NCBI GenBank assembly: GCA_003990765.1
Contig: RBNJ01000036.1
Coordinates: forward strand, 1-48,664
DNA from: Jimgerdemannia flammicorona
Taxonomy: Eukaryota
Length of the DNA stretch: 48,664 nt
Direction: 5' to 3'
A program made the position numbers and the translations under genes. Within the stretch, counting starts at the first letter, position 1. Each line of letters begins with the position of its first letter. The notes under the pieces are model-generated. The model searched no databases. It was not told the DNA's origin and saw nothing but the letters and a program-made list of their open reading frames with translations. Below, in pieces: positions 70-39,984 of this stretch.

Positions 70-71
<2 letters not shown>

Positions 72-1438
72 ACCAGATAATGTGAACAATTAGTAACTTA
101 GCCAGATAATGTACAGCATAGTAACCAGACACAGCAATAATTGCTGTGGAAAACTGTATAAATAGCCAGACTACCAGATAAGATATATCTATACAGAACC
201 TATATACCTGTGCTGGACCTTCACACTTGTGCAGGACCTGCACAACTTGCCATAAGTAGCAAATCTATAGTTAGCCACATAGTAACCCATAGCAATCACA
301 ACTGTATAAATTACCCCAGAGACTAGAGTGAATAAACCTTAGTCCAAAATTGAAGCAAAAGACAAGTCTGCCTACCACACTTCAAAAGGAACTCTACAGC
401 CACTGCTAGGAGATTGTGAGCTTATTTCCCCACTCTGGTCCACTTTCTGATACAAAGCTTGAAGATTTTACTATCAAGTTCAAGTGAAGAACTTTGCTGC
501 TTTTGGAATTATTAGTATGCTTGCCAGACTAAGCCTAAAGAACCCACTGCTTAAGAAATAAGCTGTACTATTAGTATGCTTGCCAGACTAAGCCTGAAGA
601 ATCTGCTGCTTAAGGAATAAGCCATACTATTGGTATACTTGCCAGACTAAGCCTGAAGAATCCAAGTTTGCTGCCAAGTTCAAGGAGAACTTTGCTGCCC
701 TTTGAGTTATTCATCACATTCCCAGAGAGCCCACCTATTCTTGCCACAAGCCAGTCTCTTGACACAACTTCGCAGTGATCTGTTCATGCAAATGAAGCCA
801 GTCTTTGATGTAACTTGCCAAGAATCCGAGTTAATTCCCAGTTAAAGCTGCTGTTTCGAGTTATCTGCATTTCCAGTTGAAGCTGCTGGTTCAGGAAGAA
901 TCCATGACACCTGAGTTATTATTCCCAGAAGAGCCTGATTCAGAAGAATCTGCACCATCCAAGTTCTGAGTTATCTGCTGCCAAAATTGTTTGTCTGTTC
1001 CCAGTGAGCCCGATTCGGAGAACACACTGCCAGTATAATTCCCAGTAAGCTGCTGTTTCAGGGAAGCCATGCCAAATCAAGCTAGCTACTAGAAATTGTA
1101 TACTTTTGGAGATCATTGCACTATACAAGATCATCATGCCAGAAATTGCATACTTTTGGAGATCATCACACTATATACGAAATCCTATCAATTCCCACTT
1201 AACCCAAGAAGAAAAAGACATACAAATCACCACTACACCCAGAGAACTGTCCCAATTAGGAAATTGACACACAAATCACTCACAGATATCCAGTTTTGAC
1301 TATTATACCACTAAACACCAAGGACCTCAGGAATCTTAGAACATTTTGTTGCTTTTTGACAAAGTAACTGAGGGCTCAAGCCAAACTACCTCAACCCCCA
1401 ACCTTGTAATTTGCCTCCATTGAGCCAGGCACATTATA
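70..1438 (+). repeat. Gypsy 5' LTR (5' end missing)
   Basis: Colinear with 8985-10295; ends GGCACATTATA (vs GGTATATTACA in the 3' LTR) just before the PBS; contains an internal 59-bp tandem repeat at 510-663. Confidence 0.95.
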
Positions 1439-1440
1439 TT

Positions 1441-1458
1441 TGGGGGCTCAACTGGGAA
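1441..1458 (+). promoter_or_regulatory. Primer-binding site, tRNA-Pro type
   Basis: TGGGGGCTCAACTGGGAA, 2 nt after the LTR; starts TGG (pairs with CCA) and closely resembles the classical tRNA-Pro PBS TGGGGGCTCGTCCGGGAT. Confidence 0.75.
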
Positions 1459-1473
1459 GATTTCAAAATTGAC

Positions 1474-3900
1474 ATGACTTTTCAGCTCACAAGAACCTAC
1501 AGTCAAACTGATATATTTGATACAACACCAATCTCTGTCACTATAGGAGAACCAGTTATTACCAACATCTGGACAAGAAGAGAAGTAATTACATCAAGAC
1601 TTGCCAACTATCCAGCATCAGAAGGATCCCAATCAGAACCAGAAGGCAGTACAGCCCAAAATCCCCAACCAGATCAACCAGACAACATAGGTGGCCCTGT
1701 TGGAGATTTTGAAGAACTTGCACAAGAACTAGAAGATCTTATTACACAAGCCCAAGACCTTACAGCCAGACACCCCATACCAGTCCCATCAATCTCACCA
1801 ATAGAACCTTTACCACAAGCCCTTGTAGAATTGGAAGTAGCTCCTATAAGAATATCTAGGCTCATTTCACTTTGTCCAAGGTCCAGAACACTATTGTCAG
1901 GATACCCAAGCACCTCTATCTCCAGTGATAGCTCAGAAAGCAAATCAGAATCAGAATCCAGACCAGAACCAGAATCAGAAGAAAGTGATAATAAAATGAC
2001 CACCTCATTGCCAACCTTTGCAGAATACCCAGAGGAAGACCCCAGAGAATTTCTTGATGGAATTAAAGGAATTGCTGCCCTGAGGAATCTTTTAGATGAA
2101 AGAAAAATCACCATCTACAAGGCCCAGCTTAGAGAACCAGTTAGAGGAATTTTCCACCAAACAGCAAATGATCCAAATTTAGAACTGGCAAGACAGATAC
2201 AAGCAGCAATGTCTTATGAGCTAGAATATGTAGCCATGATCCACTGGCTCATTGGAAAGTATGCAGGAAATGAACCCCACTATAAGGCCTAAGAATCCAT
2301 TATGGAAATGAAGATAAATCTTGGAGAATTGCCCAGAGCCTTCTTCACAAGAATCCAGAAGAGAATACATGCTGCTGAGTTCAATGCCACCAACCAGGAC
2401 ATCATAGGCCCAATGATCTTCATGAATGGAATTCCCCCAAACATTGCCCAGCATGTCCACACCCTAGGCATCAGAAGATCTGAAGAGCAAGTTGATGCAG
2501 CCTAAAGATTCTTTGATGTCAGACAAGAAACTACCTGGAGTGATCATGATAAGAAAGAAGATAAAGAAGACATCCTGGTCAAAGCCCTACAAGGACTCCT
2601 TCAAGAACAAGAAAGATCTGAAGAAAGAAGGCCAGCCAAAGAGGGAAAGAAGGACAGAAGTAAAATCCAAGACCTCAGTTCCAAGTTGGACTGATTGGTT
2701 GGACAGATTGAAAAACTCACCACACACAAAAATAGGAGCTACCAAGATAACAGAGGATATCTGCCACAGAGGAGCCAAGATTATCTACCAAGAAATAATA
2801 GGAGCTACCAGCAAGAGGAAAGAAGGTACCCTGTCCAAGACAGAGGACAAGTCCAATGTTTCTACTGTGGAAAATTTGGACACTATATCACTGAATGTGA
2901 CAACAAAAGAAGTGACTAAAGGGACTCAGAACCACCACACTGAAGGAATGACACTCAATACAAGAAGACTAAAGTCCACCCTGTTGAAGATTTCAAAGAA
3001 GCAAGCAACAGTGAAGACAATAGTGACCTAGACTTGTACTCTGCTAAGATTACCACTCAGAAAACAGTTTATCCAGCAGAGAAATGAAAGAGACCTGTAG
3101 GAAGGCCATCCAGGAATATCAACAGGAGAATCATCCAAGAAGAAGATGAAGAGCATGAGGAGGAGCAGGTAGAAACACCTCCCTGAACTCCCTCACCATT
3201 TGCCTCTGAAACAAATGAGCTACTACCAGAAGATGAAGAAATGGAACAAGAAGAATGGGAACCTGCTGCTTCAAAGCCCAAGAAGAAGTACACCCCAAAG
3301 ACTATGCCTAGAGATATCTACAATGAAGCCTGGCAGAAGATTCAAGAGGCCAAGATGGAAGTCCCCCTCTTGCAGTTCCTGCAACTGACACCAGCTGGAG
3401 TCCAAAACAAACTACTGAGAACCACTAGGTCCAGTACTGGCCGAGTTCCAATCCCACAGCAAGAACCAGTTTCCATCCCTGTCCAAGTAGCCAAAAGACA
3501 TGTCAGCACCTATCTACATAGAGATATTGGAGGACAAAAGGCGAAAATCCTCATAGATACAGGAGCAGCTGTCTGTATCATTGCAAAATGATTTCTGGAC
3601 ACCCTCCAATGGCCCATTGATGGACCATCCAACCTTAGCATTATAGTAGCAGATGGTGCCCAAACTCAACCCCTTGGAGAAGTATGAAATATCACTATTT
3701 CCCTGAGACATATTCAGTTTTCTATTCCCAAAGCTGTTGTCACTGAAGCTGTCACCTATTATATGATCCTTGGCACCAACTGGATGAAGGAAATGAATAC
3801 AGTTGTTGACATCAGTCAACAAGTACTCAAGTTTGACTACTAAGGCAAGAAGTACAGAGTTAAGGTGACCAGCTATGAGCAATCAAAGAAGAAGGAGAAG
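1474..3900 (+). pseudogene. gag: Gypsy gag and aspartic protease in one reading frame, interrupted by stops
   Basis: ORFs 1411, 2302, 2695 and 3241 share one frame; capsid-like LPTFAEYPEEDPREFL; zinc knuckle CFYCGKFGHYITEC (2857-2898); protease LIDTGAA (~3550) and ILGTNW. Confidence 0.9.
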
Positions 3901-5149
3901 GTCACTATTCAAGAAGAATATACTAGTAGTGAAGAATCTACCATAGAAGAAGAGGAATAATCTGAAGATGGAAATGATCCCAGAATCAATCCCTGAATTA
4001 ACCTAGTGGATGACAGACCAGAAGACAATGTGTGGGCTAAGAACACCATCCCTATCACTATTGGAGCTATTGCAGGAGAAATCAAAGAATGCCCCACCTA
4101 TCTCAAGAGACACAAGTGTCCTGAGCACTCTTCCAAAATCATTGGGACAAGGAATTCGCCTGGCACAGCCTGCCCTGAGTGCAGAAGGAAGAAGAAGAAA
4201 TACAGACATGTTCCAGAAATACCTGCAACCAAAGCTGCAGAAGTGCAAGCAATTTGGAGACAAGAATCATCTGAGAAAGAAGAAGTTCCTGACCAAGAAG
4301 TTCCTGAAGGAGAAGTACCTGAAGAAGAAGAGGTTCCTGAACTCATTCCCTGGAATGACCCTCACTGGACACCACCTGAAGATGATGACCCTTGGAATAT
4401 GGAAGAAGGACCAGCACAATCACCATTATTCCCAAGAAAGAAACTCACCAAGAGAGAGCTTTTTGGCTAGAAAGATATCCACACCAAATGGTCTTCCACT
4501 CTCCCCAAGACTACTGCTATCAGTGTCATCTACTAGACGAACAAGAGAGATAGAAACCCCAGAGACCAGAACCCCCAAACACAGTTACACAGTCAACTAC
4601 TTTCCAAGAAGTTACCACCAAGTTGCAAAGCCAATTCAGAGGACAAGACCTCTCCACCTGGACAGAAGTCTACCCCCTGTCTACTCTTCCACCAAATTAT
4701 GACCAAGATGGATACCAATTTCCAAGACAACAAGAGATCAACAACCAGGAACATCATTTTCAAGCAATGTGATATTGCAACCATGGAAAACACCCAGACT
4801 GCAAAGACTGTAGACATCAGAAGATTCACTCAGTCATGATGTTGCAATCCATATCTTGAAGAGAGGAGACAACAGAAGGCAGATTCGAAAAAGCCAGACC
4901 AAGAAGGATTCTCAAGATCTATAATTTAGGAGAAGACATCCTAGCTCTCGTTAGACATACAACCTGCCAAGGATGGGTAGAAGATGCCACCAACTTCATG
5001 GAAGCCCTAGACCCTACAGGAAGAAGAGGAATCAACTATCTCCAGGACCCCTCTACTGGAGCCAGATGGCCACACCTCAACCTCAGAGCCTGGAGGCTCT
5101 CTGCTAGTAGAGCTTCAGCCCTAGGATAGCCTGAACTTAGTAAGGATAT

Positions 5150-5560
5150 TGCCCAGTATGCCCTGCTACATCCCAAGGCCAAACCCCCAACCAAAGTCCT
5201 CCCAGAAGACATAGAGTATGATCTTCACAGTCTAGAGGATGAATCCATCAAGCCTGGAAAAACATTCATGATCAGAACTGGACTAGCCATGCAGCCACCT
5301 CAAAGAACTTACATACAATTGACCTCAAGGTCTGGACTTGCCAGACAAGGAATAACTGTAGAAGGAGGAACCATTGACCCAGGATATACAGGCGAAATTA
5401 AGGTTATCCTACACAACAGCAGTGCAGAATGGCACCAAATCATTAAAGGACAGAAGATTGCCCAAGCAGTCTTCATGAAAGTCAGGACTCTGAAATTACA
5501 AGAAGTGTCCAAACTGACCAAAGGAACAAGACAAGCCAAAGGATTTGTAGCTCAGACAAG
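5150..5560 (+). pseudogene. Retroelement-encoded dUTPase domain (trimeric type)
   Basis: Motifs EYDL (I, decayed), TSRSGLA (II), GGTIDPGYTGEI (III), GQKIAQAV (IV); motif V RQAKGF[G]SS broken by a 1-bp deletion at ~5547. Confidence 0.92.
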
Positions 5561-5989
5561 AAGAAAGTACATCTCCTTCAAGTCAACCACCTCAAAAAGA
5601 ATGTTCCCCAGCAAGTGTACTGGCAACCAGTCAGATTGTACAAGGATCTTATCCTGGAGCCTGGAGAACAAACCACCTTCGAAATATTTGCACCACCCGA
5701 CCCCAGAAACCTTTTCTTTGAACCTAAGGAAGATATCCCACACCTGGATATAGAAGGATACACCTTCCCTGACAAGATGAACCCAGTGCACTCCTGAGCA
5801 ACCAACCAAAGTTGGGAGACCATCATCTTGCCAAAAGAAACCATCATAGGACATCTGGTGCCTTTTCTCAACTGAACTCATAGGGAAATTTATGAACTAA
5901 ACTTATCAGGAAACAACAAAAGGTCTAAGAAGAAAGAAAAGGCCCATCTGCGACCCAGGAGACAGTGAAGCCTTCTACCAACATTGGAG

Positions 5990-7336
5990 AAGAATTGACA
6001 CCCCAACAACAGTAACAATTAGTAGAACTCCTCAAAAAATATCAAGATATCTTCACCACTGATTATGGCAACCTGTTATATAATCCATCATATCACTATA
6101 GCATAAATATAGGAAATGCAACACCCATCTGACAGAAACCCTACAGAATACCCCATCACTTAAAAACATTCAAAAAAGAGTATATTTAAGAACTCTTAGA
6201 CAATGGAGTCATCTGACCCTCTATCAGCCCCTGGGCCAGCCTTATACTTATTGTACCAAAGAAAGGAGGATGGAGACTCTGTGTGATTACAGGAAACTCA
6301 ATTCAGTCACCAAAAAGGATGCCTATCCTTTGCCCAGAATTGATGATCTTTTGGATCAGTTACAAGATACCAGATACTTTAGCAGTATGGACCTTTTTGC
6401 AGGATTCCATGAAATCCCTATGGACCCCAAAGATATTCAAAAGACAGCCTTCCTTGCTCTAGAAAAACTGTTTGAATACCTCTGAATGCCCTTTGGACAT
6501 TGCAATACACCTGCCACCTTTCAGAGAATGATGAATTCAGTCTATGCCCCCTTGATCCACCACTGCCTGATTGTATACAACCTGTACCACCTAGAGGAAT
6601 TCTTCAAGCTCACCTGCAAGAACCACCTGAGACTAAATGCAAAGAAATGCTACTTCAGGAAACAGAAACTCAAATTCCTTAGATTCATAATTTCAAAAGA
6701 AGGAATCCATATAGATCCAAAGAAAACCGAGAAGATCAACAATTGGCCAGTACCCAAGACCCTGAAGGAAACATTATCATTCCTGATGCTGGTATCCTAC
6801 TACAGAAGGTTTATCAAGGATTTTGCCCAAATAGCTGCCCTGATCCGAATCCTTCTCAAGAAAGGAGTATCATTCAAATGGATAGAATTACAAGAAAAAG
6901 CCTTCAAGGAACTCAAAAACTGCATAACTACAGCACCAATCCTTGTGCACTCCAATCTACAGAACCATTCATCTTATATACAGATGTTTTTAAAGATGGC
7001 CTCAGAGCAGTTCTAGCTCAAGAAGGACCCAATCAATAATACCATGTGATAGCTTATGTGAGCAGAGCTACCAATCAGCAGCAGATGAACTATGGTAGCA
7101 CCAAACTAGAATGTATTGCAGTCATATGGGCAGTCACTCTGTTCAAGTATTACCTCATTGGAAAAAGGTTCACCCTGATCACAGACCATGCAGCCCTCAA
7201 ATAGCTATTCAACTGCAAGGAACCTACCAGAATTCTTGTCTGTTGGATCCTTATTCTTCAGGATTACAAAATCACTATTGCCCACAAAGCAGGGAAAGCT
7301 CACAACAATGTTGATATACTTTCCTGTCAATTCTAA
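5990..7336 (+). pseudogene. pol: Gypsy reverse transcriptase and RNase H
   Basis: SPWAS..VPKK, DYRKLN..TKKDAYPLPRIDDLLD, MPFG..NTPATFQRMMN; the YxDD segment is deleted at ~6578; RH FILYTD, ITDHAALK, KAHNNVDILS then TAA at 7334-7336. Confidence 0.93.
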
Positions 7337-8406
7337 TGAACCAGAAGAAGGGTGTCCCAAGGAACTACACCCTAAAGGAAGCTCCTCAGACCATCAAGGC
7401 ACAAGAAGATCTCATCTGAAAAGAACATCAGAAAGCCTACTAGGGACAGATGAATATAGAAGAGAAGCTGTGAACAATATAACAACATTAGCCCAACCTC
7501 AGAACATAAGTCCAGGACATACTCAAGAAATGTGATACTTGCCAGAAGTACTAAGGAAGGAAGAATTATCAAGCACCATTGCAGCCAATCAGACCATCAG
7601 ATAACATCTTTCAGAGATGGGGAATAGATGTAATTAAACCTCTACCAGTTACACCAAGAAGAAATAAATATATTCTTGTATTTGTGGAATATCTGACCAA
7701 GTGGCCCAAGGCTTTCCCAATGGAAATCACAGATGCCTTAACCATCATAGGTCTTCTCCATGGACTCACACTCAGATATGGATTTCCAGAAGAACTCATC
7801 TCTGACCGAGACACAGAATTCATCAATAATATAATCATAAGTTATGCCCAAATTCACAAGATCCACCTCAAACAAACCACATCATATCACCTTCAGACCA
7901 ATGGCATGATAGAAAGAATGAATCAGATCATCAAGAAAGGACTTGTCCAAGTCAATCCTATCAACTGGGACCTCTGCTTACCTGAGATCCTATGGGAAAT
8001 TTGGAACACCCCTACTGCTTCTACAAAACAAAAGCCATTCAAAATGATGTTTGCCAAGAAGATCAGAACTGCTGACCATAAGAATCTCAGAGACCTCCTC
8101 AAGAAGGCAGAACAGTTACATAATAAAGCCCAAGGTCAGATTATTAAAGCTCAAGAAAGACAAAAGAAGTATTATAATCAAAAACAGAAGGATCAGGAGA
8201 TCAAGATTGGAGATCAAGTACTAGTTTGGAGAAGCATAATTGAAACAAATTTTGCCACCAAATTGGAACCCAAATGGGAAGGACCTTATCTTGTGCACAA
8301 TATCAGAGGAACTAGCATCTATTTAAGAGATATTAATGGATGAACCCTGAGGATACCAGTACACATCAATCATCTCAAGATATATGTACCTTTTCCCACA
8401 TCATGA
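7336..8406 (+). pseudogene. Gypsy integrase (HHCC, DDE core, GPY/F), own ATG, no chromodomain
   Basis: ATG 7336 is in frame with ORF 7579-8343; EHQKA..CDTCQK, WGIDVI, LISDRDTEF, QTNGMIERMN, KLEPKWEGPY; reads through TGA 8341 (probably CGA) to VHINHLKIY..TS* at 8404-8406. Confidence 0.9.
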
Positions 8407-8907
8407 ATCAGAGAGTTGACAACTGCCTCCAGACCCTTGTCCTCAGCTCATTTCAATCACTGTCAGTTTCTTTACCCCAATTTTGAGGAATCAATGGCAC
8501 TACCCTCCAGAGGATTCAGGTTTACCAAGAGAATCTTGTCCTGGCCAGATGATTGCTACAGGTCCATCAACTTCAGGCCCATTATGCAATTGGAGAACAA
8601 TTGCAGAACCTCTCAGTCCCTGAACAGATATATATCAGAAACACCACAGGACTATCAAGGCAAGATATTACTGCTGCAGATAGACATTACACCCTTTATA
8701 CATAAATGAAACCCTGCAGCCCTGATACAAGCACAATTCTCCTGATATGATGTATGAGGAATGAACTTAGCCACCTACCTGAGCATCATCAATGCTGTCG
8801 AAATTCTATTCCCAGAAGAATAAGAAGAACCCTTGGAAACAGATGATGAAGATGACAGAATAGGTATTGATGCAGAAGATACTTACCCATACTGGAATGA
8901 TGACTAA
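8403..8907 (+). pseudogene. Extra ORF of unknown function between integrase and PPT (~167 codons)
   Basis: ATG overlaps the INT stop (ATGA); continuous apart from four TGA (CGA-derived), one TAA and one frameshift at ~8700; acidic C-terminus (EEPLETDDEDDRIGIDAEDTYPYWNDD*). Confidence 0.6.
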
Positions 8908-8947
8908 AGGACAGTCTGAAGACAGACCATCCTTTAGTGGGGGCTAA

Positions 8948-10295
8948 TGTGACATATCAAAAACATACCACCTGAATTATACCTTAGCCAGATGATGTGA
9001 ACAATTAGTAACTTAGCCAGATGACATACAGCATAGTAACTAGACACAGCAACCATTGCTGCAGAAAACTGTATAAATAGCCAGACTACCAGAAAAGGTA
9101 TATCTGTGCAGGACCTGCACACCTGTGCCAGACCTACACACTTGTACTGGACCTGCACAACTTGCTATAATTAGCAAATCTATAGTTAGCCACATAGTAA
9201 CCCATAGCAACCACAACTGTATAAATTACCCCAGAGACAAGAGTAAATAAACCTCAGTCCAAAATTGAAGCAAAAGACAAGTCTGCCTACTACACTTCAA
9301 GAGAAACTCTTCAGCCACTGCTAGGAGATTATAAGCTTATTTCCCCACTCCGGTCCACTTTCTGATACAAAGCTTGAAGATTTTGCCACCAAGTTTGAGT
9401 GAAGAACTTTACCACCTTTGGAATTATTGGTATGCTTGCCAGACTAAGCCTGAAGAACCCACTGCTAAAGGAATAAGCTGCACTATTGGTACACTTGCCA
9501 GACTAAGCCTGAAGAATCCGAGTTTGCCACCAAGTTCAAGGAGAACTTCGCCACCCTTTGAGTTATTCATTGCATTCCCAGAGAGCCCACCTATTCTTGC
9601 CACAAGTCAGTCTCTTGATGCAACTTTGCAGTGATCCATTTGTACAAATGAAGCCAGTCTTTGACGTAACTTGCCAAGAATCTGATTTAATTCCCAGTTG
9701 AAGCTGCCGTTTTCAAGTTATCTACATTCCCAGTTGAAGCCGCTGATTCAGGAAGAATCTGCGACACCTGAGTTATTATTCCCAGAAGAGCCCAATTTAG
9801 AAGAATCTACACCATCCAAGTTCTGAGTTATCCACTGCCAAAATTTTTCATCTGTTCCCAGTGAGCCCGATTCAGAGAACCCGCTGCCAGCATAATTCCC
9901 AGTAAGCCACCATTTCAGGGAAGTCATGCCAAATCAAGCTATCTGCCAGAAATTGCATACTTTTGGAGATCATTGCACTATATAAGATCGTTATACCAGA
10001 AATCACATACTTTTGGAGATCATCATACTATACATGAAATCCTACCAATTCCCAGTTAACTCAAGAAGGAAAAGATATACAAATCACCACTACACCCAGA
10101 GAACCATCCCAATTAGGAAATTGACACACAAATCACTCACAGATATCCAGTTTTGACTATTATACCACTAAACACCAAGGACCTCAGGAATCTTAGAACA
10201 TTTTGTTGCTTTTTGACAAAGTAACTGAGGGCTCAAGCCAAACTACCTCAACCACCAACCTTGTAATTTGCCTCCATTGAGCCAGGTATATTACA
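8948..10295 (+). repeat. Gypsy 3' LTR (1348 bp), preceded by PPT
   Basis: Begins TGTGAC after AGTGGGGGCTAA (8936-8947); ends TTACA; direct repeat of the 5' LTR. Confidence 0.95.
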
Positions 10296-16365: not shown

Positions 16366-19300
16366 GACAAGTTATAGTAAGGAACACTTTTGTGTTCGAG
16401 TCATTCACCCACTAATTATAAAGGGAAATGAATCAGATTTTGATGAGCTATCTAGCTCTAACTCGAAAAAAAATAAAATAAAATAAAATAATGGAGAAGA
16501 TAGAAACTGAAGGACTCATTCTATGATAATTTAAATAATTTTTATCTCAGGAAATTAAAAGGCGATCTGGGAAATCCGGCCTTATTTTGACTCAACCGAC
16601 CAGGATTACCAGCATGATATGCGTTAAATGTCTAATGGGTTTTATTTTCGCGAGAAGGCCACAAAGCTGGTGATCTCGGTGATGCAAACCATGTACGAAA
16701 CAGGCTTATAAGTCTTAATTGATCACCTGTGTCAAATTCTTGACTCCGAACTACGCAAAATAGCCTTATATTTCGTTACCAAAAATTGACGGGAATGCAC
16801 GATTCTCCTCTCCCTTTCAATCATGCTAAGACTTGATCAAATACCTCGGTTTAATGTTTCAATGCATCTGAATAATGCTTGCTGGCATGTGACATTTAGA
16901 GTGAAGGAACGGAAGGAAAATATCCTCAGAGGAGACCAGCCTACTATGATACATTTCGGTGACAAACGCGAGAGTGAGTGTAACAGGGGGCTGTGTCGTC
17001 GAGAGGAGTCGCGACTTGGCGACGTTTGTATAACAACGGACGCTTAGTCACGTATAAACCGAGTGGCCTCCGACAATCACTATGGCGACCCCATTTGGTT
17101 ATGTCCTGGCCATTTCAAAAAGATATCATGCGCAGCCCATTGACTACTTTCGGCACTACTAATTTTACATGTCTCTGAAAAGAAAAGCATTTACCTGGTC
17201 CGTAAGTCCGCTGGAAAGTCCAAAAATAGGTATCATCAGCCACCCGTATATGATATAAAGGCAACTTCGAATCATTCAATCCACCCCCACAATCATCCAT
17301 CGATATAAAATGAAGATTTCCTTAACCTTAACCCTCACCGCCGCCACTCTCTTCGGCACCTCCTCTTCCGCACCGGCGGCCACCATGGACGCCTGCGGTT
17401 GTGTGGGCAACGTTCCCGGGACGTGGGTGATGTGGAAGAAGGCTATGGCGTGTATCCGTAGCATCCCATTCAATACCAAGTCTCGCGATGAGGTGCTGAG
17501 CTACATTGATAAGACGCTTCCTTTCTACGTTTTCCTTGACCAAGCGCGCAACTACACGGGGCGGTACCCATTGCAAGTTGATCTCCTTGCTGGCCTCCAG
17601 CGGATCCGGACCACCACCTTTCCGGACGACTACTCATTCAATGTGGACATCGAAAACCTTTTCACATCGTTCAACGATGGCCACACGCTTTTCTGGAACG
17701 AATTTTATTCAAGCTCTAAGCTTGGTCAGTGGGATTTTCGCCCGCCGTTTCTTATTGCCCCCGTAAGTGTTGGGGACAAATTGAAGTGGAATGTTGTAAA
17801 CGCAGATATCGGCGACCTGGCAACCTCGAGTTCGGAGACTTATCTAGAGAGCTTCAAGGCGCAGACGGGCATCAACGTAACTAGCTACGCGGGGGCCGAG
17901 GTCACGGCCATCAACGGCCGCCTAATCTTGGAAGTGGTGAAGAAGTTCGGCGACACCCAGGTCGGTGTGTCGCGCGACCCGTCCACACGATTCAACATCG
18001 CCGTCGCCACGGGGAGGACCCAGTACCCGCTAGGCGCATTTTCGTACCGGCAGTCGATCCGCAAGCCAGATTCCGCCACGCTATCCTATACCCTGATCCC
18101 CGCAGGAGAGACCAAGGCGATGACGCTGACTTTGCCTTGGATGGCGCTGACTCCGAGCGGGAGCTTTGCCTCGACGGCCGAGTTCTATAAAAGCAACTGC
18201 GGGTTCAACACAGACTCATCGACATCAGTAGCCGCGGTTGCCGAGGGACAGCCGGCGCCTGCGCTGCGAGCGAGGAAGTTAGAGCAAGAGGCCAAGTTGG
18301 AAAAGACGGCGCTGGTCAAAGGGACCACAACGCCTGCGGGCGTCCTTATGCTCCAGGAGCCGAGTTGCACAGATGACTTCGAAATCCCAGCTTTAGCCGG
18401 GGTGCCGTGGGGGTGCTTTTACAAGCTGGATAAAACGACGGCCGTGTTTACGCTGAGCAAGTTTCAGCAAGCGCCCCACAGCAAAGATGGTGCATGGCAG
18501 AGGCAATTCCAGAGCGCGTTCGAGATACTTAAACGGCAGAACCTGACCAAGCTCGTCATCGACTTCAGTGACAATCACGGAGGTTCGATCGCCTTCGGTG
18601 AGCTATTCTACATTTCATTATTTTGATATGGCGAGGGCTACTGACATCTTCCTTCCGCTCGCAAAACCCAGCCTACGCACTCCTGAACTGCCTGTTTCCC
18701 GCCCAGCCTCGGCACCTCTACTTCGCAACGGATATCCGCCTTCATCCGCTGGCACTCAAGCTCACCGCTGCAGCGGTGCAGCAGAACAATACCGATTCGT
18801 TCTGGCACTATTCCAGCTGGGCCGATCCAACCACAGGCGCACCTTTTACAAGTCCCAATCAATTCCCTGGCCACATTACCTACACAAGGGGTGGCGTCGC
18901 AACACAATACACAGCTCGGTTCATTGATAACGTTAGTGCAGGTTATATGACATTAAGCAAATGACCTTCTTAATTCTAGATTTCCTTGCCACATCCATAA
19001 CCATCGACTCAACACACTTTACTAAAATCTCCACTAGGTCGCAAATGATTTGGCCTTGCTTCCTCCTAGCACGAACTTCCACTACGTGCCCTCTGATGTC
19101 CTATTCCTATCTAACGGTAACTCCTTCAGCGCGGGCGCCCTGGTCGCACGTCATCTCCAAGACGTGGTCGGCGTGAAGACCGCCGTCCTTGGCGGCTACC
19201 CCGACCAGCCGCAGGTCATGTGGACGACAATAGGCGGTGAGGTGTACACGATTGACTCCGACATCACGGACCTGGGCCTGGATACCGATCCGGACGCACC

Positions 19301-19890
19301 GTCGGCGACCAACTTGCGGATCTCGGTCACTTTTGTTATCCGCGAGGCCTATGGGAATTACCAGCCTGCCAAAGAAGGAGTGGTGCCGCTGGAATTTTCG
19401 TGGAAGGCCGCCGACTACAAGATACCGTTTACCGCTGAGAATGTTCTTGGGCCGGCTGTGTGTTGGAATCAAGTAGCGGCGTTGTTGGCGTAGGAGTAAG
19501 GTAGTTGTCGCAATAACGCCATTTAGCGTCAAATATGTATCTAGTATGACTCAGAATAAAAAAAAGAAGAAAATTTTGCAAACAAAATAAAAATCTCAAT
19601 GATGTAGTGAATAGAACGAATGTAAAAGGCTGTGATGAAATCGTGGCGATTTTGAACAAAATTCTCTCTTACTGTCGGTCCTCACTTCCCAACCTACATA
19701 CCGCACTCTGACCTTCGCTGGCCCTCGGCCTTGCCGTAACCTTAAGAAACAAAACCGATGCCCTTCTCATAAAGAGCTCTCCCACACCCATATTACCTTT
19801 TCAACGTGTCCACACTCTTCCACAGGCCGTAATACCTTCGAGTTCTAATCCATGACCAAATTGATCAACACTATTTTGCAAAAACGGCTT
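16366..19890 (+). repeat. Tandem duplication unit, copy 1 (upstream region, S41 gene, 3' flank)
   Basis: 16366-17331 aligns to 20319-21362; the 3' flank 19705-19890 aligns to 39738-39920; ATG-to-ATG spacing is 4031 bp. Confidence 0.92.
17310..19493 (+). CDS. Secreted peptidase family S41 (CPAF/tail-specific protease-like), 667 aa; exons 17310-18597, 18672-18931, 19038-19493
   Basis: Signal peptide MKISLTLTLTAATLFGTSSSA; NDGHT (His), PDZ-like GAEVTAING, LVIDFSDNHGG, LSNGNSFSAG (Ser); introns GTGAGC..CTGAC..CAG (74 nt) and GTTAGT..TAG (106 nt) join three track ORFs in frame (2004 nt); CpG-rich coding. Confidence 0.88.
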
Positions 19891-29064: not shown

Positions 29065-32000
29065 GGCTTAGATATACTCTACAATTCTTCAGAAGTAAGA
29101 TTATAATCATTTCTAGATTACTTATTATTGCTGGATTTCATGCTTAGTACTTGAGATCTATATTAGTTATATATATACTACTGTTTAATAGCCTCAGTCT
29201 AAAAAGAATATAATAGTCTAACTATATATATTAATTATTATATATACTATTTCTATAGCTATATAGTTAAATTACTCAGCTATGCCATTTTGCTAAGATA
29301 TATACATATAGAGCTATCATTTGATAGTATATACTATATTCCTTAGATATTGCTTAAATATTCTATTGATATATTTCTATCTATTATCTAAGTATATAGT
29401 ATATATTCTACATTCTATCTAATTCACTGTAATTACTTTAAACTCTTTAAATTTCTCCAATATCTCACTTTTTGCCATTAAGAAGTATATATATACTTAT
29501 ATATATAATTATTAATAAATGTGATGAAATATCTCTTTATATCTTAGGAAGTAGTATATATATTAGGCTGTATATATTTATATATACATGAGGTCTAAAA
29601 TTCCAGATATATATTTTAGTCATCCTTTAAATTGATACTAGATTGCTTTATTTTCTACACATATTATATAGAAATACTCAGAATGTATTATCAGTAATCT
29701 TTATATAGATCTATTTCTAATCATTCTTTCTAGGTTCATATATATTATCTATATATATGAAGTATTGATAATATATATTGAATATATCAAATATAGTTAT
29801 CATATATATAGAGACTTTCACACCATTCAGTATATCATTAATTATATAAAGATTGCCTCATTTTTATATATTATAATCTCTTTATTATTCTTAAGAATAT
29901 ATACAGTTGCTCTCTTAGATATATATATTTCTTTATTACTATGGACCATTATTTTGCCAATTAAGAAGAGGTTCTTACTTATCTTTAAAATATATAATAT
30001 ATCCTAAAATATACTAGCAAGTTCTGTGATATTTCTATAGTAATATATACTAATATCTCCTTAGTCCTGAGTATAAATAACATTGTTATCTCTCAACTTG
30101 ATAGATATAGGATATTCAAATAGCTTATATATATATGGAAAACTATTCCTAGTAAGCTGTTATATATTATATATCACTTGAATCTATAAGCTATATATTA
30201 TTATTATCAACTATATTGATATATACTTTACTTATATTACTTATATCATTGATATCATTACTTATTACTGACCCAAAAGTATATAGCTTAGATGTAAATA
30301 TATTCTCCAGATGCTTGATATATATTGCTTATATTTAGAATATATCTCTATCTTAGTTATTTTTAGTTTCAATAGTATTTCCATTATATTGCTCTTTGCT
30401 ATAATTCTTTCTACTACTCCTATATTGTTATTTACTTTTATCTTCTCTTTCCTTATAATAGCAATTATTCTACATATATCTATACTTACTATAGTAATGA
30501 TAGTTACTATCAAACTTAGTGGATTTATGTTTCTGATCTTATTGATACTTCTTATCTTATCTATGTAATCTGTAGAACACTTTCTTATCATTGTTACCAC
30601 TATTTTCTTGATGTATCTCCTTATTTATAAGACTTGTTATTACATAGACATAGTCTACAAGCTTGCTGTATTTATATATAGCTGCTACTATAATATTATA
30701 TACCTTAGAGAGAATTCTTCTAAGGACTGGAACCTTGTCTTTGTCATCTATACACTCTGCTGATATACTTAGAGAATTCACTTAATTTACCAAATTATTG
30801 ATAGCATTGAGGTATTTATAGATACTTTCCTTAGACTTCATTCATATGTAGATTGAATAGCTGAGATTTTAAGTAAATCTAATATAATATAGATATTTAT
30901 TTAATAATTATATAGAGTCTCTCATACTTTATAAGTAGTTATTGTATGTATTATATACTTTGTTTGCAAAATTGATAATGTGAATGCAATCTTGCATAAT
31001 GCTTGATAATCATTTATAGTATTGTAATCTTAAATCTGTGCTTGCAGGTTTATATAATCTGCCAAGCTACATTTTTCTAAGAGATTGCTCATATGGAATA
31101 TTCCAATGATATAATCCTTACCATCAAAAATTGGGATTGAAATCTTGACTGTGTTTATGCTTGCTGCAGGGACTGTGACCATTGTCAAACCTATTTCAGG
31201 GGATCCACACCTACTGTGGCTGTGTTTGGTATACACACACTAGCTCCTTAATTCATCTCTTACAACATCTTAGCATAGAGTAGCATACAGTCTTAGAGAG
31301 GTGTTTCTTTTTAGCTGTAAACCAGGGCTCATAACTTTTGTTGTGTTTTTTTGGGAATATGAAGTGGAGAAGAGCAGCAGCATTGTTTGCGTTTTTTGAC
31401 GTAGCTCAAGGATGACGTAGCTCAAGGATGACGTAGTTCTAAGAATCACATGTCTAAGCCACATTATCGTAATAAGAATTTCAACACTTAACCCTCACCG
31501 CCGCCACTCTCTTCGGCACCTCCTCTTCCGCAACGGCGGCCACCATTGACGCCTGTGGGAGTGGGGGCAATGTTTCCGGGACGTGGGTGATGTGGGAGAG
31601 GGCTATGGCGTGTATCCGTAGCATCCCATTCATTACCAAGTCTCGCGACGGGTGCTGAGCTACATTGAGAAGACGCTTCCCTTCTACGTTTTCCTTGACC
31701 AAGCGCGCAACTACACGGGCCGGTACCCATCGCAAGTTGATCTCCTTGCTAGCCTCCGCGGATCCGGACCACCACCTATCCGGACGACTACTCATTCAAT
31801 GTGGACATCGAAAACCTTTTCACATCGCTCAACGATGGCCACACGCTTTTCTGGAACGAATGTTATTCAAGCTCTAAGCTTGGTCAGTGGGATTTTCGCG
31901 CGCCGTTTCCTATTGCCCCCGTAAGTGTTGGGGACAAATTGAAGTGGTATGTTGAAAACGCAGATATCGGCGACCTGGCAACCTCGAGTTCGGAGACTTA

Positions 32001-32797
32001 CCTAGAGAGCTTCAAGGCGCAGACGGGCATCAACGCAACTAGCTACGCGGGGGCCGAGGTCACGGCCATCAACGGCCGCCCCATCCTGGAAGTGTTGAAG
32101 AAGTTCGCCGACACCCAGGTCGGTGTGTTGCGCGACCCGTCTACGCGATTCAACATCGCCGTCGCCGCGAGGAGGACCCAGTACCGGCTAGGCGCATTTT
32201 CGTACAGGCAGTCGATCCGCAAGCCGGATTCCGCCACGCTGTCCTATAACCTGATCCCCGCCGGAGAGACCAAGGCTAAGACGCTGACTTTGCCTTGGAT
32301 GGTGCTGACTCCGAGCGGGAGCTTTAAAAAATAACTGCGTGTTCAACACCGACTCATCGACATCAGTAGCCGATGTTGCTGAGGGACAGCCGGCGCCTGC
32401 TGCGAGCGAGGAAGTTAGAGCAAGAGGCCAAGTTGGAAAAGAAGGCGCTGGTCAAAGGGACCACAGCGCCTGCGGGCGTCCTTATGCCCCAGGAGCCGAG
32501 TTGCACAGATGACTTCGAAATCCCAGCTTTAGCCGGAGTGCCATGGGGGTGCTTCTTCAAGCTGGATGAAAAGGCGGCCGTGTTTATGATGAGCAAGTTT
32601 CAGCAAGCGCCCCACAGCAAGGATGGTGTATGGCAGAAGCTGTTGAAATATCTTAGTTATAACAACTCGATATGTGGTGGCGCAGCCTGACTACATCATC
32701 ACTATAATTGTCATCAATACATGTAAAAGCGCATAAGCTAGTACTAATAAACAATTACTTTTTTCTCTCCATTCTTCCCAAGTATTCCACAACAAAT

Positions 32798-38310: not shown

Positions 38311-39984
38311 TTGCTCTCTGGATCTCCATTTTTCACTATCCTGTTGACCTATTTTCATGCTTATAAGCAGGGAATTTCACCCTTTTCCAGTCATCTAGAT
38401 AGCATCCTGTTGGTCATATTTAATTTGCTCAGTTCTTTTTTTTATTTGCATATTCTGGGATATATCTCGTTGAGCGGGAGTGTTGCAATATCTTGTTATA
38501 GCAACTCGAAATGTGGTGGCGCAGCCTGACTACGTCATCACTGTAAACGTCATCAATACGCGTAAAAGCGCGTAAGCTAGTATCAATAAACAATCGCTTT
38601 CTTCTCTCCATTCTTCCCAAGTATTCCACAACAGAGGCAATTCCAGAGCGCGTTCCAGATACTTGAACGGCACAACCTGACCAAGCTCGTCATCGACTTC
38701 AGTGACAATCACGGAGGTTCGATCGCCACATTCAATCCATTCAACACTATACTGCGAAATCCTTACTGACACCTTTCTTCCTCTCACCAAATCCCGCCTA
38801 TGCTCTCCTGAACTACCTGTTCCCCGCCCAGCCTCCGTACCTCTACTTCGCGACAGACATCTGCCTCCATCCCCTGGCACTCAAACTTACCGCCGCGGCG
38901 GTGCAGCAAAACAGCACTAATTCGTTCTGGCACTATTCCAGCTGGGCCGATCCAACCACAGGCGCACCTTTTACTAGCCCCGATCAGTTCCCGGGCCATA
39001 TTACCTACACGAGGGGTGGCGTCAAAACACAGTACACAGCTCGGTTTATTAGCAATGTAATTGCATGATGTTACATTAAATGACTGGCCTGCTTAATATT
39101 TTTGCCACGTCCATAACCATCGCCTCAACGCATCTCTGAAAATTCCTCTAGATGGCAAAGGACTTGGCCTTGCTCCCACCGAGCACGAATTTCCAATACG
39201 CGCCTTCTGACGTCCTCTTCCTGACTAATGGTAATTCTTTTAGCGCAGGCGCCCTGGTCGCACGTTATCTCCAAGACGTGGTCGGCGTAAAGACGGCCGT
39301 CCTTGGCGGCTACCCCGGTCAGCCACCGGCTACTTGGACGACGGCAGGCGGTCAGGCGTACACGATTGACTCCGACATCAACAACTTGGGACTGGATAAC
39401 GATGCGGACACACCGCCTGTGACCAACTTGCGAATCTCCGTCACTTTTACTATCCGCGAGGCCTATGGGAATGTCCAGCCTGCCAAAGATGGAGCCGTGC
39501 CGCTTGAATATGCGTGGAAGCCGGCCGATTACAAGATACCAATTACCGCTGAGAATGTTCTCAGGCCGGTTGTATATTGGAAGCAGGCTGTGGCGTTGTT
39601 AGCGTGGGGGAGGCCTTTATGTGTGAAAACGATATTATTATAGAAATAAATATTATTAGAATAGATAACAAAACAAAAAGAAATCTGTAAGGTACAGTGA
39701 ACGAAACTAATCGTAACCCACTTCACAACCTATTTATCCCTGACCTTTGTCGGCTCTCGGCCTCTTATGACGCTAAGTAATATAATCGATACCACACCGA
39801 GCACGCTACTATTCCTTCTCGTGAGCGAGCTCTCCCATATATGTATTACTATTTCAACGTGCCCACGCTCTCCCACAGACCACCATACCAACAAACTCTA
39901 AACCCCGTTTTGGCAAACGCATTACTCGAATTCCCTATCGCCATGCTACGCAACGATTACACGCTTGCTGTCTCGGATGACGCC

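Follow-up and report, generated by a model that had tools for sequence, protein, structure and literature searches.

A conserved third gene downstream of integrase in a clade of Ty3/gypsy-type retrotransposons, recognized from a decayed copy in Jimgerdemannia flammicorona

In the window analyzed here, which is the whole 48,664-nucleotide (nt) stretch of Jimgerdemannia flammicorona contig RBNJ01000036.1 (assembly GCA_003990765.1, forward strand), sequence comparison identifies positions 8403–8907 as the decayed copy of a real gene, ORF3, the third in a Ty3/gypsy-type long terminal repeat (LTR) retrotransposon. Comparison with relatives further indicates that this gene is under purifying selection, that its family sits directly 3′ of the integrase (INT) gene throughout a clade of elements, and that the layout of this clade is tri-cistronic, with gag-protease-(dUTPase)-reverse transcriptase-RNase H, INT and ORF3 as successive cistrons. 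The predicted product of about 170 amino acids (aa) is a compact seven-helix domain (residues 1 to ~138), usually followed by a disordered, acidic, tryptophan-bearing tail, and it is not an envelope protein. A genuine ORF3 gene with putative coupled translation and an adaptor role is probably the best explanation of the observations as a whole. The features that frame ORF3 in the window are as follows.

7336–8406, plus strand: INT cistron; its ATG (7336–7338) overlaps the TGA at 7337–7339, and its stop is the TGA at 8404–8406.
8403–8699, plus strand: ORF3 pseudogene, part 1, in the frame of 8403; 80% identical to P0167.
8700–8706, plus strand: site of the ORF3 frameshift, located by DNA and protein alignments.
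8707–8907, plus strand: ORF3 pseudogene, part 2, in the frame of 8707; 8710–8904 is 75% identical to P0167.

The window copy of ORF3 is a pseudogene with six internal stops and one 4-nt frameshift. The frame of 8403 is open to 8699 except for TGA codons at 8484 and 8550, and the frame of 8707 carries TGA codons at 8707, 8743 and 8755 and a TAA at 8821 ahead of the terminal TAA at 8905–8907. Between the two parts, the window has 7 nt at 8700–8706 where the metagenome loci L001 and L002 have 3 nt, that is, 4 extra nucleotides that shift the frame. An earlier note, made from the letters of the window, had read this region as a two-frame mosaic with one frameshift, and the reading is borne out: the two pieces, 80% and 75% identical to the metagenome protein P0167, align end to end with intact homologues of 169–172 aa, and the ORF3 of L002 matched the window in tblastn with an expectation value (E) of 2.7e-22. 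The same note took the stops for former CGA codons. This holds for the three at 8484, 8550 and 8707, where intact homologues have arginine, as expected from CpG decay, but not for those at 8743, 8755 and 8821, which align to tryptophan or leucine, glutamine and glutamate. At its C terminus the window copy has an acidic tail that finishes in ...YPYWNDD, and ten metagenome homologues end in the same way (...DAE.AY.YW(N/D)(D/E)D).

Metagenome contigs were scanned with an INT alignment, which gave 80 loci. The INT of loci L001–L003 is 78–79% identical to that of the window, and the DNA 3′ of their INT stop aligns with 8403–8907. L002 showed a single open frame of 144 codons that begins at the same ATGA and runs through the frame-change site of the window. 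The INT/ORF3 junction of L003 reads CCATAATTGA and hence is without an ATG, and the sister protein P0164 has a methionine at this place. Searching with the L002 ORF3 and then with the family alignment matched 18 metagenome proteins, all unnamed and without Pfam domains; four full-length homologues were obtained (P0167, 171 aa; P0168, 172 aa; P0163, 169 aa; P0164, 183 aa), and the family profile matches ORF3 members at E values from 1e-83 to 6e-5.

The way in which these copies differ supports a protein-coding gene. Indels between copies of ORF3 are 12, 15 and 18 nt long, all multiples of three, and the differences between L002 and L003 are concentrated at third codon positions (23/15/48 by position). 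Together with the shared homology, these two features argue that the ORF3 frame is more than chance. Nei-Gojobori comparisons of the window, L001, L002 and L003, in which synonymous sites are near saturation and the values therefore rough, gave ratios of nonsynonymous to synonymous differences per site (pN/pS) of 0.26–0.41 in the ORF3 frame, 0.77–1.23 in the +1 frame and 1.08–1.74 in the +2 frame, so that the purifying selection among copies by which the earlier note proposed to check the gene is indeed found. INT in its own frame gave 0.15–0.35, and ORF3 evolves faster than INT (pN of 0.19–0.29 versus 0.015–0.11). As a separate observation, L001 and L002 are nearly identical in INT (371–1216 and 945–1790, respectively; pS of 0.044) and very different in ORF3 (1216–1569 and 1790–2224; pS of 0.58, pN of 0.19), which would be consistent either with exchange of an ORF3 module by recombination or with one of the contigs being chimeric.

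Although tblastn with the L002 protein reached the close family only, an iterated profile went further. Run over all 178 plus-strand ATG-initiated open reading frames (ORFs) of the 80 loci (≥90 aa), it picked up 8, then 27, then 37 and finally 44 members, at which point it converged. All 44 members start between 170 nt upstream and 240 nt downstream of the INT stop, and none of the 134 other ORFs (gag, pol, INT) was drawn in. A member is present in 40 of the 53 loci that have at least 450 nt after INT, in which INT identity to the window falls to ~27%; the remaining 13 may be decayed copies. An extra ORF in the env position, as the earlier note had supposed, is thus real, and its homologues in these loci sit directly 3′ of INT. 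Reversed or shuffled decoys gave 0 of 356 matches at E ≤0.001 (best 0.075). A second profile, which drew on only the 37 distant members but used the columns of the joint alignment A6 and is hence mildly circular, recovered seven of seven close-family proteins at E values of 3.5e-14 to 4.5e-9, and its best background match (3.4e-4) was another ORF located after INT.

Upstream of ORF3, the relatives have two further cistrons. ORF1 is a single frame with a Ty3-type capsid, zinc knuckle, protease, reverse transcriptase and RNase H, and INT is a separate ORF of ~415–430 aa beginning with methionine. The interval between protease and reverse transcriptase holds a dUTPase in L018, L013 and L064, a NUDIX domain in L057 and nothing in L027 and L034. 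In L057 (713–5026), the NUDIX domain (Pfam E of 9.6e-11) occupies the place of the dUTPase and looks like a swap of one nucleotide-sanitizing enzyme for another. A further observation concerns L018 and L027, where only ~470–570 nt separate ORF3 from the next long gag-pol ORF; such contigs read INT-ORF3-LTR-gag-pol, as would arise from tandem elements, one-LTR circles or collapsed repeat assembly.

The predicted protein is helical, as the earlier note had it. AlphaFold2 gave a mean predicted local distance difference test (pLDDT) of 72 with a 20-row alignment of the close family and of 88, with a predicted template-modeling score (pTM) of 0.73, with the 44-row alignment of the clade; that the model improved once distant members were included supports the family independently. 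The model comprises helices at 2–18, 34–69, 72–82, 86–99, 103–108, 113–117 and 121–134, followed by a low-confidence tail, and the best-conserved positions are core hydrophobics together with Y61, G64, A92, R94, Y96, F/Y99 and A105 (P0167 numbering). A tail of at least 10 aa is present in 30 of the 44 members; 22 of these tails are net acidic, 25 contain at least one tryptophan, often two or three, and some carry Lys/Arg clusters that by eye, unscored, resemble nuclear localization signals.

None of the databases searched offers a name for this protein, in agreement with the earlier description of it as uncharacterized. Pfam, with all 44 members, returned a best E value of 0.0038 to an unrelated family in two of them, NCBIfam returned nothing for ORF3, sequence searches of the PDB gave a best E value of 0.027 (a coiled-coil protein) and then 0.4, the ESM Atlas gave no usable match to P0163, and a single-protein ORF3 search of viral contigs found no relative. 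The AlphaFold and Foldseek comparison suggested in the earlier note yielded the above model; Foldseek found no match at E ≤0.001 in the PDB (both models) or BFVD, and the highest Z scores that VIA-align gave the two models, in a comparison with 48,161 chains, were 4.4 and 4.1. The helix-turn-helix (HTH) character once suggested for ORF3 was not established: Pfam reported no HTH family, and the DNA-binding domains of SopB (Z of 3.4, root-mean-square deviation of 3.8, 79 residues aligned), VirB (3.3) and StbA (3.1) appear among the low VIA-align rows only as echoes that the tool's own guidance places at noise level. As for an envelope function, which the earlier note had rejected, no membrane-like segment was seen in any of the 44 members with a 19-residue Kyte-Doolittle window at ≥1.6, a hydropathy scan rather than a dedicated signal-peptide predictor, and Pfam, BFVD and PDB fold searches showed no homology to env or fusion glycoproteins, a distant relation being beyond their reach.

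The junctions between cistrons bear on how ORF3 may be translated. In the window, the ATG at 8403–8405 shares bases with the INT stop at 8404–8406 to form ATGA, with the start offset by −1 from the stop. Taken alone this would say little, since stop codons are often preceded by an A; it is the conservation in relatives that counts, and the overlap noticed in the window is indeed kept there. ATGA joins INT and ORF3 in the window, L001, L002, L010 and L011, and TAATG does so in L027 and L028; in 14 of 43 loci the nearest in-frame ORF3 ATG is no more than 5 nt from the INT stop, and the count rises to 21 and 38 loci at distances of up to 20 and 60 nt, respectively. The junction between RNase H and INT shows the same arrangement. 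The TAATG junction that the earlier note had pointed out at 7334 (TCTAATGAACC) proved to be this boundary and also contains an ATGA overlap (7336–7339), as do L003 (...CCCAATGAACC..., ATG at 2791, TGA at 2792) and L002; L001 reads CAATAA here. Among 12 scorable ORF1/INT junctions of the clade, stop and start are within 5 nt in eight, and the other four have gaps of 83–233 nt, in keeping with the three-cistron layout claimed for the window and found clade-wide.

On the basis of these junctions, the full-length RNA could serve for synthesis of INT and then of ORF3, with ribosomes reinitiating at the AUGA overlaps in a termination-coupled manner, a route to which we attach about even confidence; ORF3 would thereby be made in small amounts and tied to INT synthesis. 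Beside the junctions we note a 9-mer, GGGAAGGAC, which in L001–L003 precedes each of the two ATGA junctions, by ~125 nt at INT/ORF3 and by ~47 nt at RNase H/INT (~2745–2753 in L003). The window retains it only at INT/ORF3 (8275–8283) and has GGGAAAGC at RNase H/INT. These sites fall inside conserved coding motifs, and the estimated probability of a chance match is ~0.09. The 9-mer may be a candidate ribosome-tethering motif.

Several points weigh against the proposed gene with coupled translation and an adaptor role. One ATG is lost by a G-to-A change in L001 and one in L003, both copies being otherwise defective. RNAalifold, with four sequences of the protein-coding region upstream of the AUGA, predicted an unconvincing structure of −9.6 kcal/mol without covariation. 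The geometry of the INT/ORF3 junction varies from overlaps of up to 170 nt to gaps of up to 240 nt (counted to the first ATG), and the frame of ORF3 relative to INT is not constant across the clade. All relatives are short metagenome contigs, and some may be chimeric. On the protein side, 14 of the 44 members are almost without a tail, so that the tail cannot be the core function, and the domain is only mildly basic (median isoelectric point of 8.7, with 17 of 44 at or below 8), which is weak for nucleic-acid binding.

The variable geometry fits a splice acceptor or an internal start as well as it fits reinitiation, and the strongest alternative is that ORF3 is real and made from a spliced or subgenomic mRNA, the ATGA reflecting mere compact packing. 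We regard this as a serious possibility, if one that we would not back. In many members the ORF3 start overlaps the 3′ end of INT by 14–170 nt, as env does with pol; the variable frame relation and the failure to find a conserved upstream RNA element in the four sequences point the same way; and the CERV protein of the Caenorhabditis elegans element Cer1, made from a spliced mRNA, offers a precedent (PMC10309623). Against it stands the recurrence of stop/start overlaps of 1–8 nt at two junctions, one of them RNase H/INT; in addition, inspection by eye of both the window and L001 found no AG between the pyrimidine run and the ATG. We also know of no case in which INT is made from a spliced RNA of its own.

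With regard to function, we rank our guesses as an adaptor acting with INT or the LTR in the nucleus, then a transactivator, then a silencing or translation factor. As an adaptor, the helical domain would bind a component of the element, which could be INT or nucleic acid within the pre-integration complex, or alternatively the LTR, and the acidic tryptophan-bearing tail would recruit a host nuclear factor. Such an adaptor, serving targeting or activation where INT has no chromodomain, is our preferred guess and a tentative one. A broader proposal is somewhat more doubtful still, namely, that the clade is truly polycistronic, with gag-protease-reverse transcriptase-RNase H, INT and ORF3 translated in turn from a single RNA by stop-restart at AUGA and UAAUG, and that ORF3 is a protein with a new fold on which this way of life depends, either promoting reinitiation in the manner of the cauliflower mosaic virus protein TAV or acting as an INT-linked adaptor that hooks a host nuclear or silencing protein through its acidic tryptophan tail.

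If ORF3 instead activated transcription from the LTR, its helical domain would bind DNA and its acidic tail would serve for activation, and foamy-virus Tas would be a model. The combination of a folded domain with an acidic, aromatic tail is what such a protein might look like, several subfamilies have the Lys/Arg clusters mentioned above, the LTR contains tandem repeats of 59 and 50 nt, and the faint structural echoes of SopB, VirB and StbA (Z of 3.1–3.4) are of DNA-binding domains. Nevertheless, those scores are at noise level, Pfam finds no HTH family, 17 of the 44 domains are not basic and 14 of the 44 members have no tail, which makes this role unlikely.

We consider it similarly improbable that ORF3 counters silencing, as an Argonaute-hook mimic presenting tryptophan in an acidic, glycine-rich tail, or that it acts as a reinitiation factor like the TAV protein of cauliflower mosaic virus. 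Tryptophan is enriched in the disordered acidic tails (25 of 30), the element has been heavily silenced by its host (CpG observed/expected ratio of 0.07 versus 0.66 elsewhere in the window), ORF3 co-occurs with the split-cistron layout across the clade, and TAV itself is a precedent for a translation factor of this kind (PMC10275272). Against this stand the absence of similarity to known suppressors or to TAV in general searches and the lack of a tail in a third of the members; moreover, a factor encoded in the last cistron would have to be present before it could itself be translated, a bootstrap problem.

The region might instead extend the C terminus of INT through frameshifting or read-through and give no separate protein. 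ORF3 is in the −1 frame of INT and open for 22–154 nt upstream of the stop in different copies, four loci (L040, L043, L070 and L074) have it in the INT frame 30 nt past the stop, and the database proteins P0171 and P0164 start at an upstream ATG inside INT. But most members have a methionine at the start of the conserved domain, the upstream open stretch varies in length, no slippery heptamer was seen by eye in the overlap, and the INT frame itself is closed in L001 and L002 and free of selection. We therefore consider such an extension very unlikely.

The relatives of INT indicate that the TGA at 8404–8406 is its true end. A HMMER scan with INT plus 167 further codons as query, in which the stop is residue 284, found 38,710 relatives, and none of the 150 best INT relatives aligned past query residue 298. 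Of 23 inspected relatives, 15 end within 36 residues of the equivalent of TGA 8404, and all 11 that were aligned end 3–21 residues beyond an LKxY motif. No chromodomain was found by Pfam at the end of INT, the relatives ending at the 8404 equivalent. The INT of the window also contains in-frame stops, TGA 8341 among them. Past the INT stop, the INT frame of the window remains open for 100 codons (8407–8706), a length reached by 27 of 2000 shuffles; since this frame is closed in relatives, its openness is probably a by-product of the codon composition of ORF3. Continuation of INT in this frame was rejected because the frame is closed in L001 and L002, shows no constraint and lies beyond the point where INT relatives end. 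Nothing was found when the INT-frame tail was compared with longer proteins by word index, and tblastn of 150 INT relatives against 8344–8944 gave an unconvincing best E value of 0.002 (25% identity over 56 aa).

Finally, the chance that 8403–8907 is an ordinary 3′ untranslated region, with the ORF an artifact of reading through stops, is negligible, because intact homologues and frame-specific constraint refute it, even though the window alone is unremarkable (three stops in 8403–8709 versus 5.2 expected, equaled by 21% of shuffles) and Pfam found nothing in the window's own broken translations in the three frames of the 8403 region.

LTR retrotransposons are commonly depicted with gag and pol and, in some cases, env. 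Additional ORFs downstream of pol are a familiar feature, and the interest here lies in the ORF3 family and the overlap-joined tri-cistronic layout. In bdelloid rotifers, the assigned ORF3s of Vesta, Juno and TelKA are env-like or encode a GDSL esterase or a DEDDy exonuclease, and a dUTPase lies between protease and reverse transcriptase (PMC5408684); additional ORFs of plant LTR elements have been reviewed (PMC7264820), and fungal Gypsy elements with a dUTPase and an "add. ORF" of unknown function have been depicted (PMC2864245). Like the ORF3 described here, these additional ORFs lie between pol and the 3′ LTR, are family-specific and often have no assigned function, and the rotifer and some fungal elements share with the window element a dUTPase between protease and reverse transcriptase. 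In contrast to the assigned rotifer ORF3s, the present one is small, helical and without database matches, and INT is a separate cistron with stop/start junctions. The "add. ORF" elements could be compared by their published description only, and ORF3 could be among them.

The CERV protein of Cer1 has 517 aa with H, M and G domains, and its mRNA, spliced from five exons, has exons in common with gag; CERV is an essential regulator that exports genomic RNA, showing that accessory ORFs can be essential (PMC10309623). Like ORF3, CERV is a partly helical, accessory, non-envelope protein of a Ty3/gypsy-type element; it is nuclear and without homologues outside its host group. ORF3 differs, as judged from the description of CERV, in its size of ~170 aa, its single domain and its start on the INT stop.

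Stop-restart translation has been described for victoriviruses (AUGA) and the hypovirus CHV1 (UAAUG) (PMC2699510), as well as for caliciviruses, influenza B virus and the non-LTR retrotransposon SART1 (UAAUG), and on the polycistronic 35S RNA of cauliflower mosaic virus TAV allows reinitiation (PMC10275272). The stop-restart cistrons share with ORF3 an overlapping or abutting stop and start (AUGA, UAAUG) after a long ORF, whereas termination dependence and an RNA structure or an 18S-complementary motif have been shown for the known cases and no such element was found in the four sequences compared at the ORF3 junction. In cauliflower mosaic virus, ORF VI, which encodes TAV, follows pol. The virus thus resembles the element in being reverse-transcribing, with closely packed cistrons and a nonstructural gene just after pol; caulimoviruses differ in having neither INT nor LTRs, and general searches detected no similarity of ORF3 to TAV. 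Within a literature coverage that left out subscription journals and Repbase, we found no description of the ORF3 family and no LTR element with INT and a third gene joined by AUGA overlaps or with two stop-restart junctions of this kind.

ORF3 is thus a conserved third gene of a clade that occurs both here and in many contigs of soil-type metagenomes, and its predicted fold, which is confident and matches nothing solved, is a candidate for a new fold in a protein that no database names. The gene is missed by annotation pipelines, and the profile from this analysis could detect it. If its translation is coupled, ORF3 would extend to LTR elements a mechanism demonstrated so far in a few RNA viruses and a single non-LTR element (PMC10275272), and would offer a handle on eukaryotic reinitiation after very long ORFs. 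If ORF3 is an INT-linked adaptor or an antisilencing factor, it would represent a new route of host handling for elements without a chromodomain.

The element that carries ORF3 occupies the first 10.3 kb of the window, which is one old LTR retrotransposon of the Ty3/gypsy type on the plus strand. Its remaining features are listed below.

1–69, strand not given: run of 69 A in place of the initial bases of the 5′ LTR; the similarity between the LTRs begins at 70 versus 8985.
70–1436, plus strand: 5′ LTR, truncated at its 5′ end, with 59-nt and 50-nt tandem repeats; matches 8985–10293.
1474–7339, plus strand: ORF1, heavily decayed, with gag, protease, dUTPase, reverse transcriptase and RNase H; first ATG at 1474.
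3526–3876, plus strand: protease in ORF1, by tblastn.
5130–5753, plus strand: dUTPase in ORF1, by Pfam (3.6e-23).
6102–7016, plus strand: pieces of reverse transcriptase and RNase H in ORF1, by Pfam (RVT_1, 8.8e-9).
7334–7336 and 7337–7339, plus strand: ends of ORF1, TAA and TGA.
8908–8984, plus strand: spacer with a purine-rich tract (…agtggggg…), running into the beginning of the 3′ LTR, from the sequence.
8985–10293, plus strand: the part of the 3′ LTR that can be matched to the 5′ LTR, by similarity to 70–1436.

The coding parts of the element (protease, dUTPase, reverse transcriptase, RNase H and INT) are all broken by stops and frameshifts, and no second copy is present in the window. 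With the 5′ LTR incomplete, the exact point at which the 3′ LTR begins cannot be assigned; the run of A at 1–69 may be the tail of another inserted retroelement or an assembly edge. The LTR pair is 90.5% identical in a MAFFT alignment (1312 aligned columns, 109 transitions, 15 transversions), and the differences are mostly TG/CA pairs from decayed CpG. At ~39 sites one LTR has TG and the other CA, which indicates an ancestral CpG that decayed independently in both, and with CpG decay set aside the divergence is only ~2.4% (32 of 1312 sites). The CpG ratios given above refer to the element (70–10293; 0.07) and to the rest of the window (10294–48664; 0.66). Tuber Tmt1 was considered as the identity of the element and is not supported, Tmt1 being described as having a chromodomain (PMC12581995).

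The tandem repeats of the LTRs lie at 510–686, 1087–1180, 9425–9540 and 9944–10037. The 59-nt unit has three copies in the 5′ LTR and two in the 3′ LTR, and the 50-nt unit has two copies in each; they are possible enhancer or binding-site repeats. Elsewhere in the window, a gene for a CPAF-like S41 peptidase at 17259–19493 shows a signal-like N terminus and at least one intron, and two partial, decayed duplicates of it are present at 31753–32334 and 38706–39643. Its nearest Atlas clusters are eukaryotic, most commonly from Ascomycota, and the gene looks fungal.

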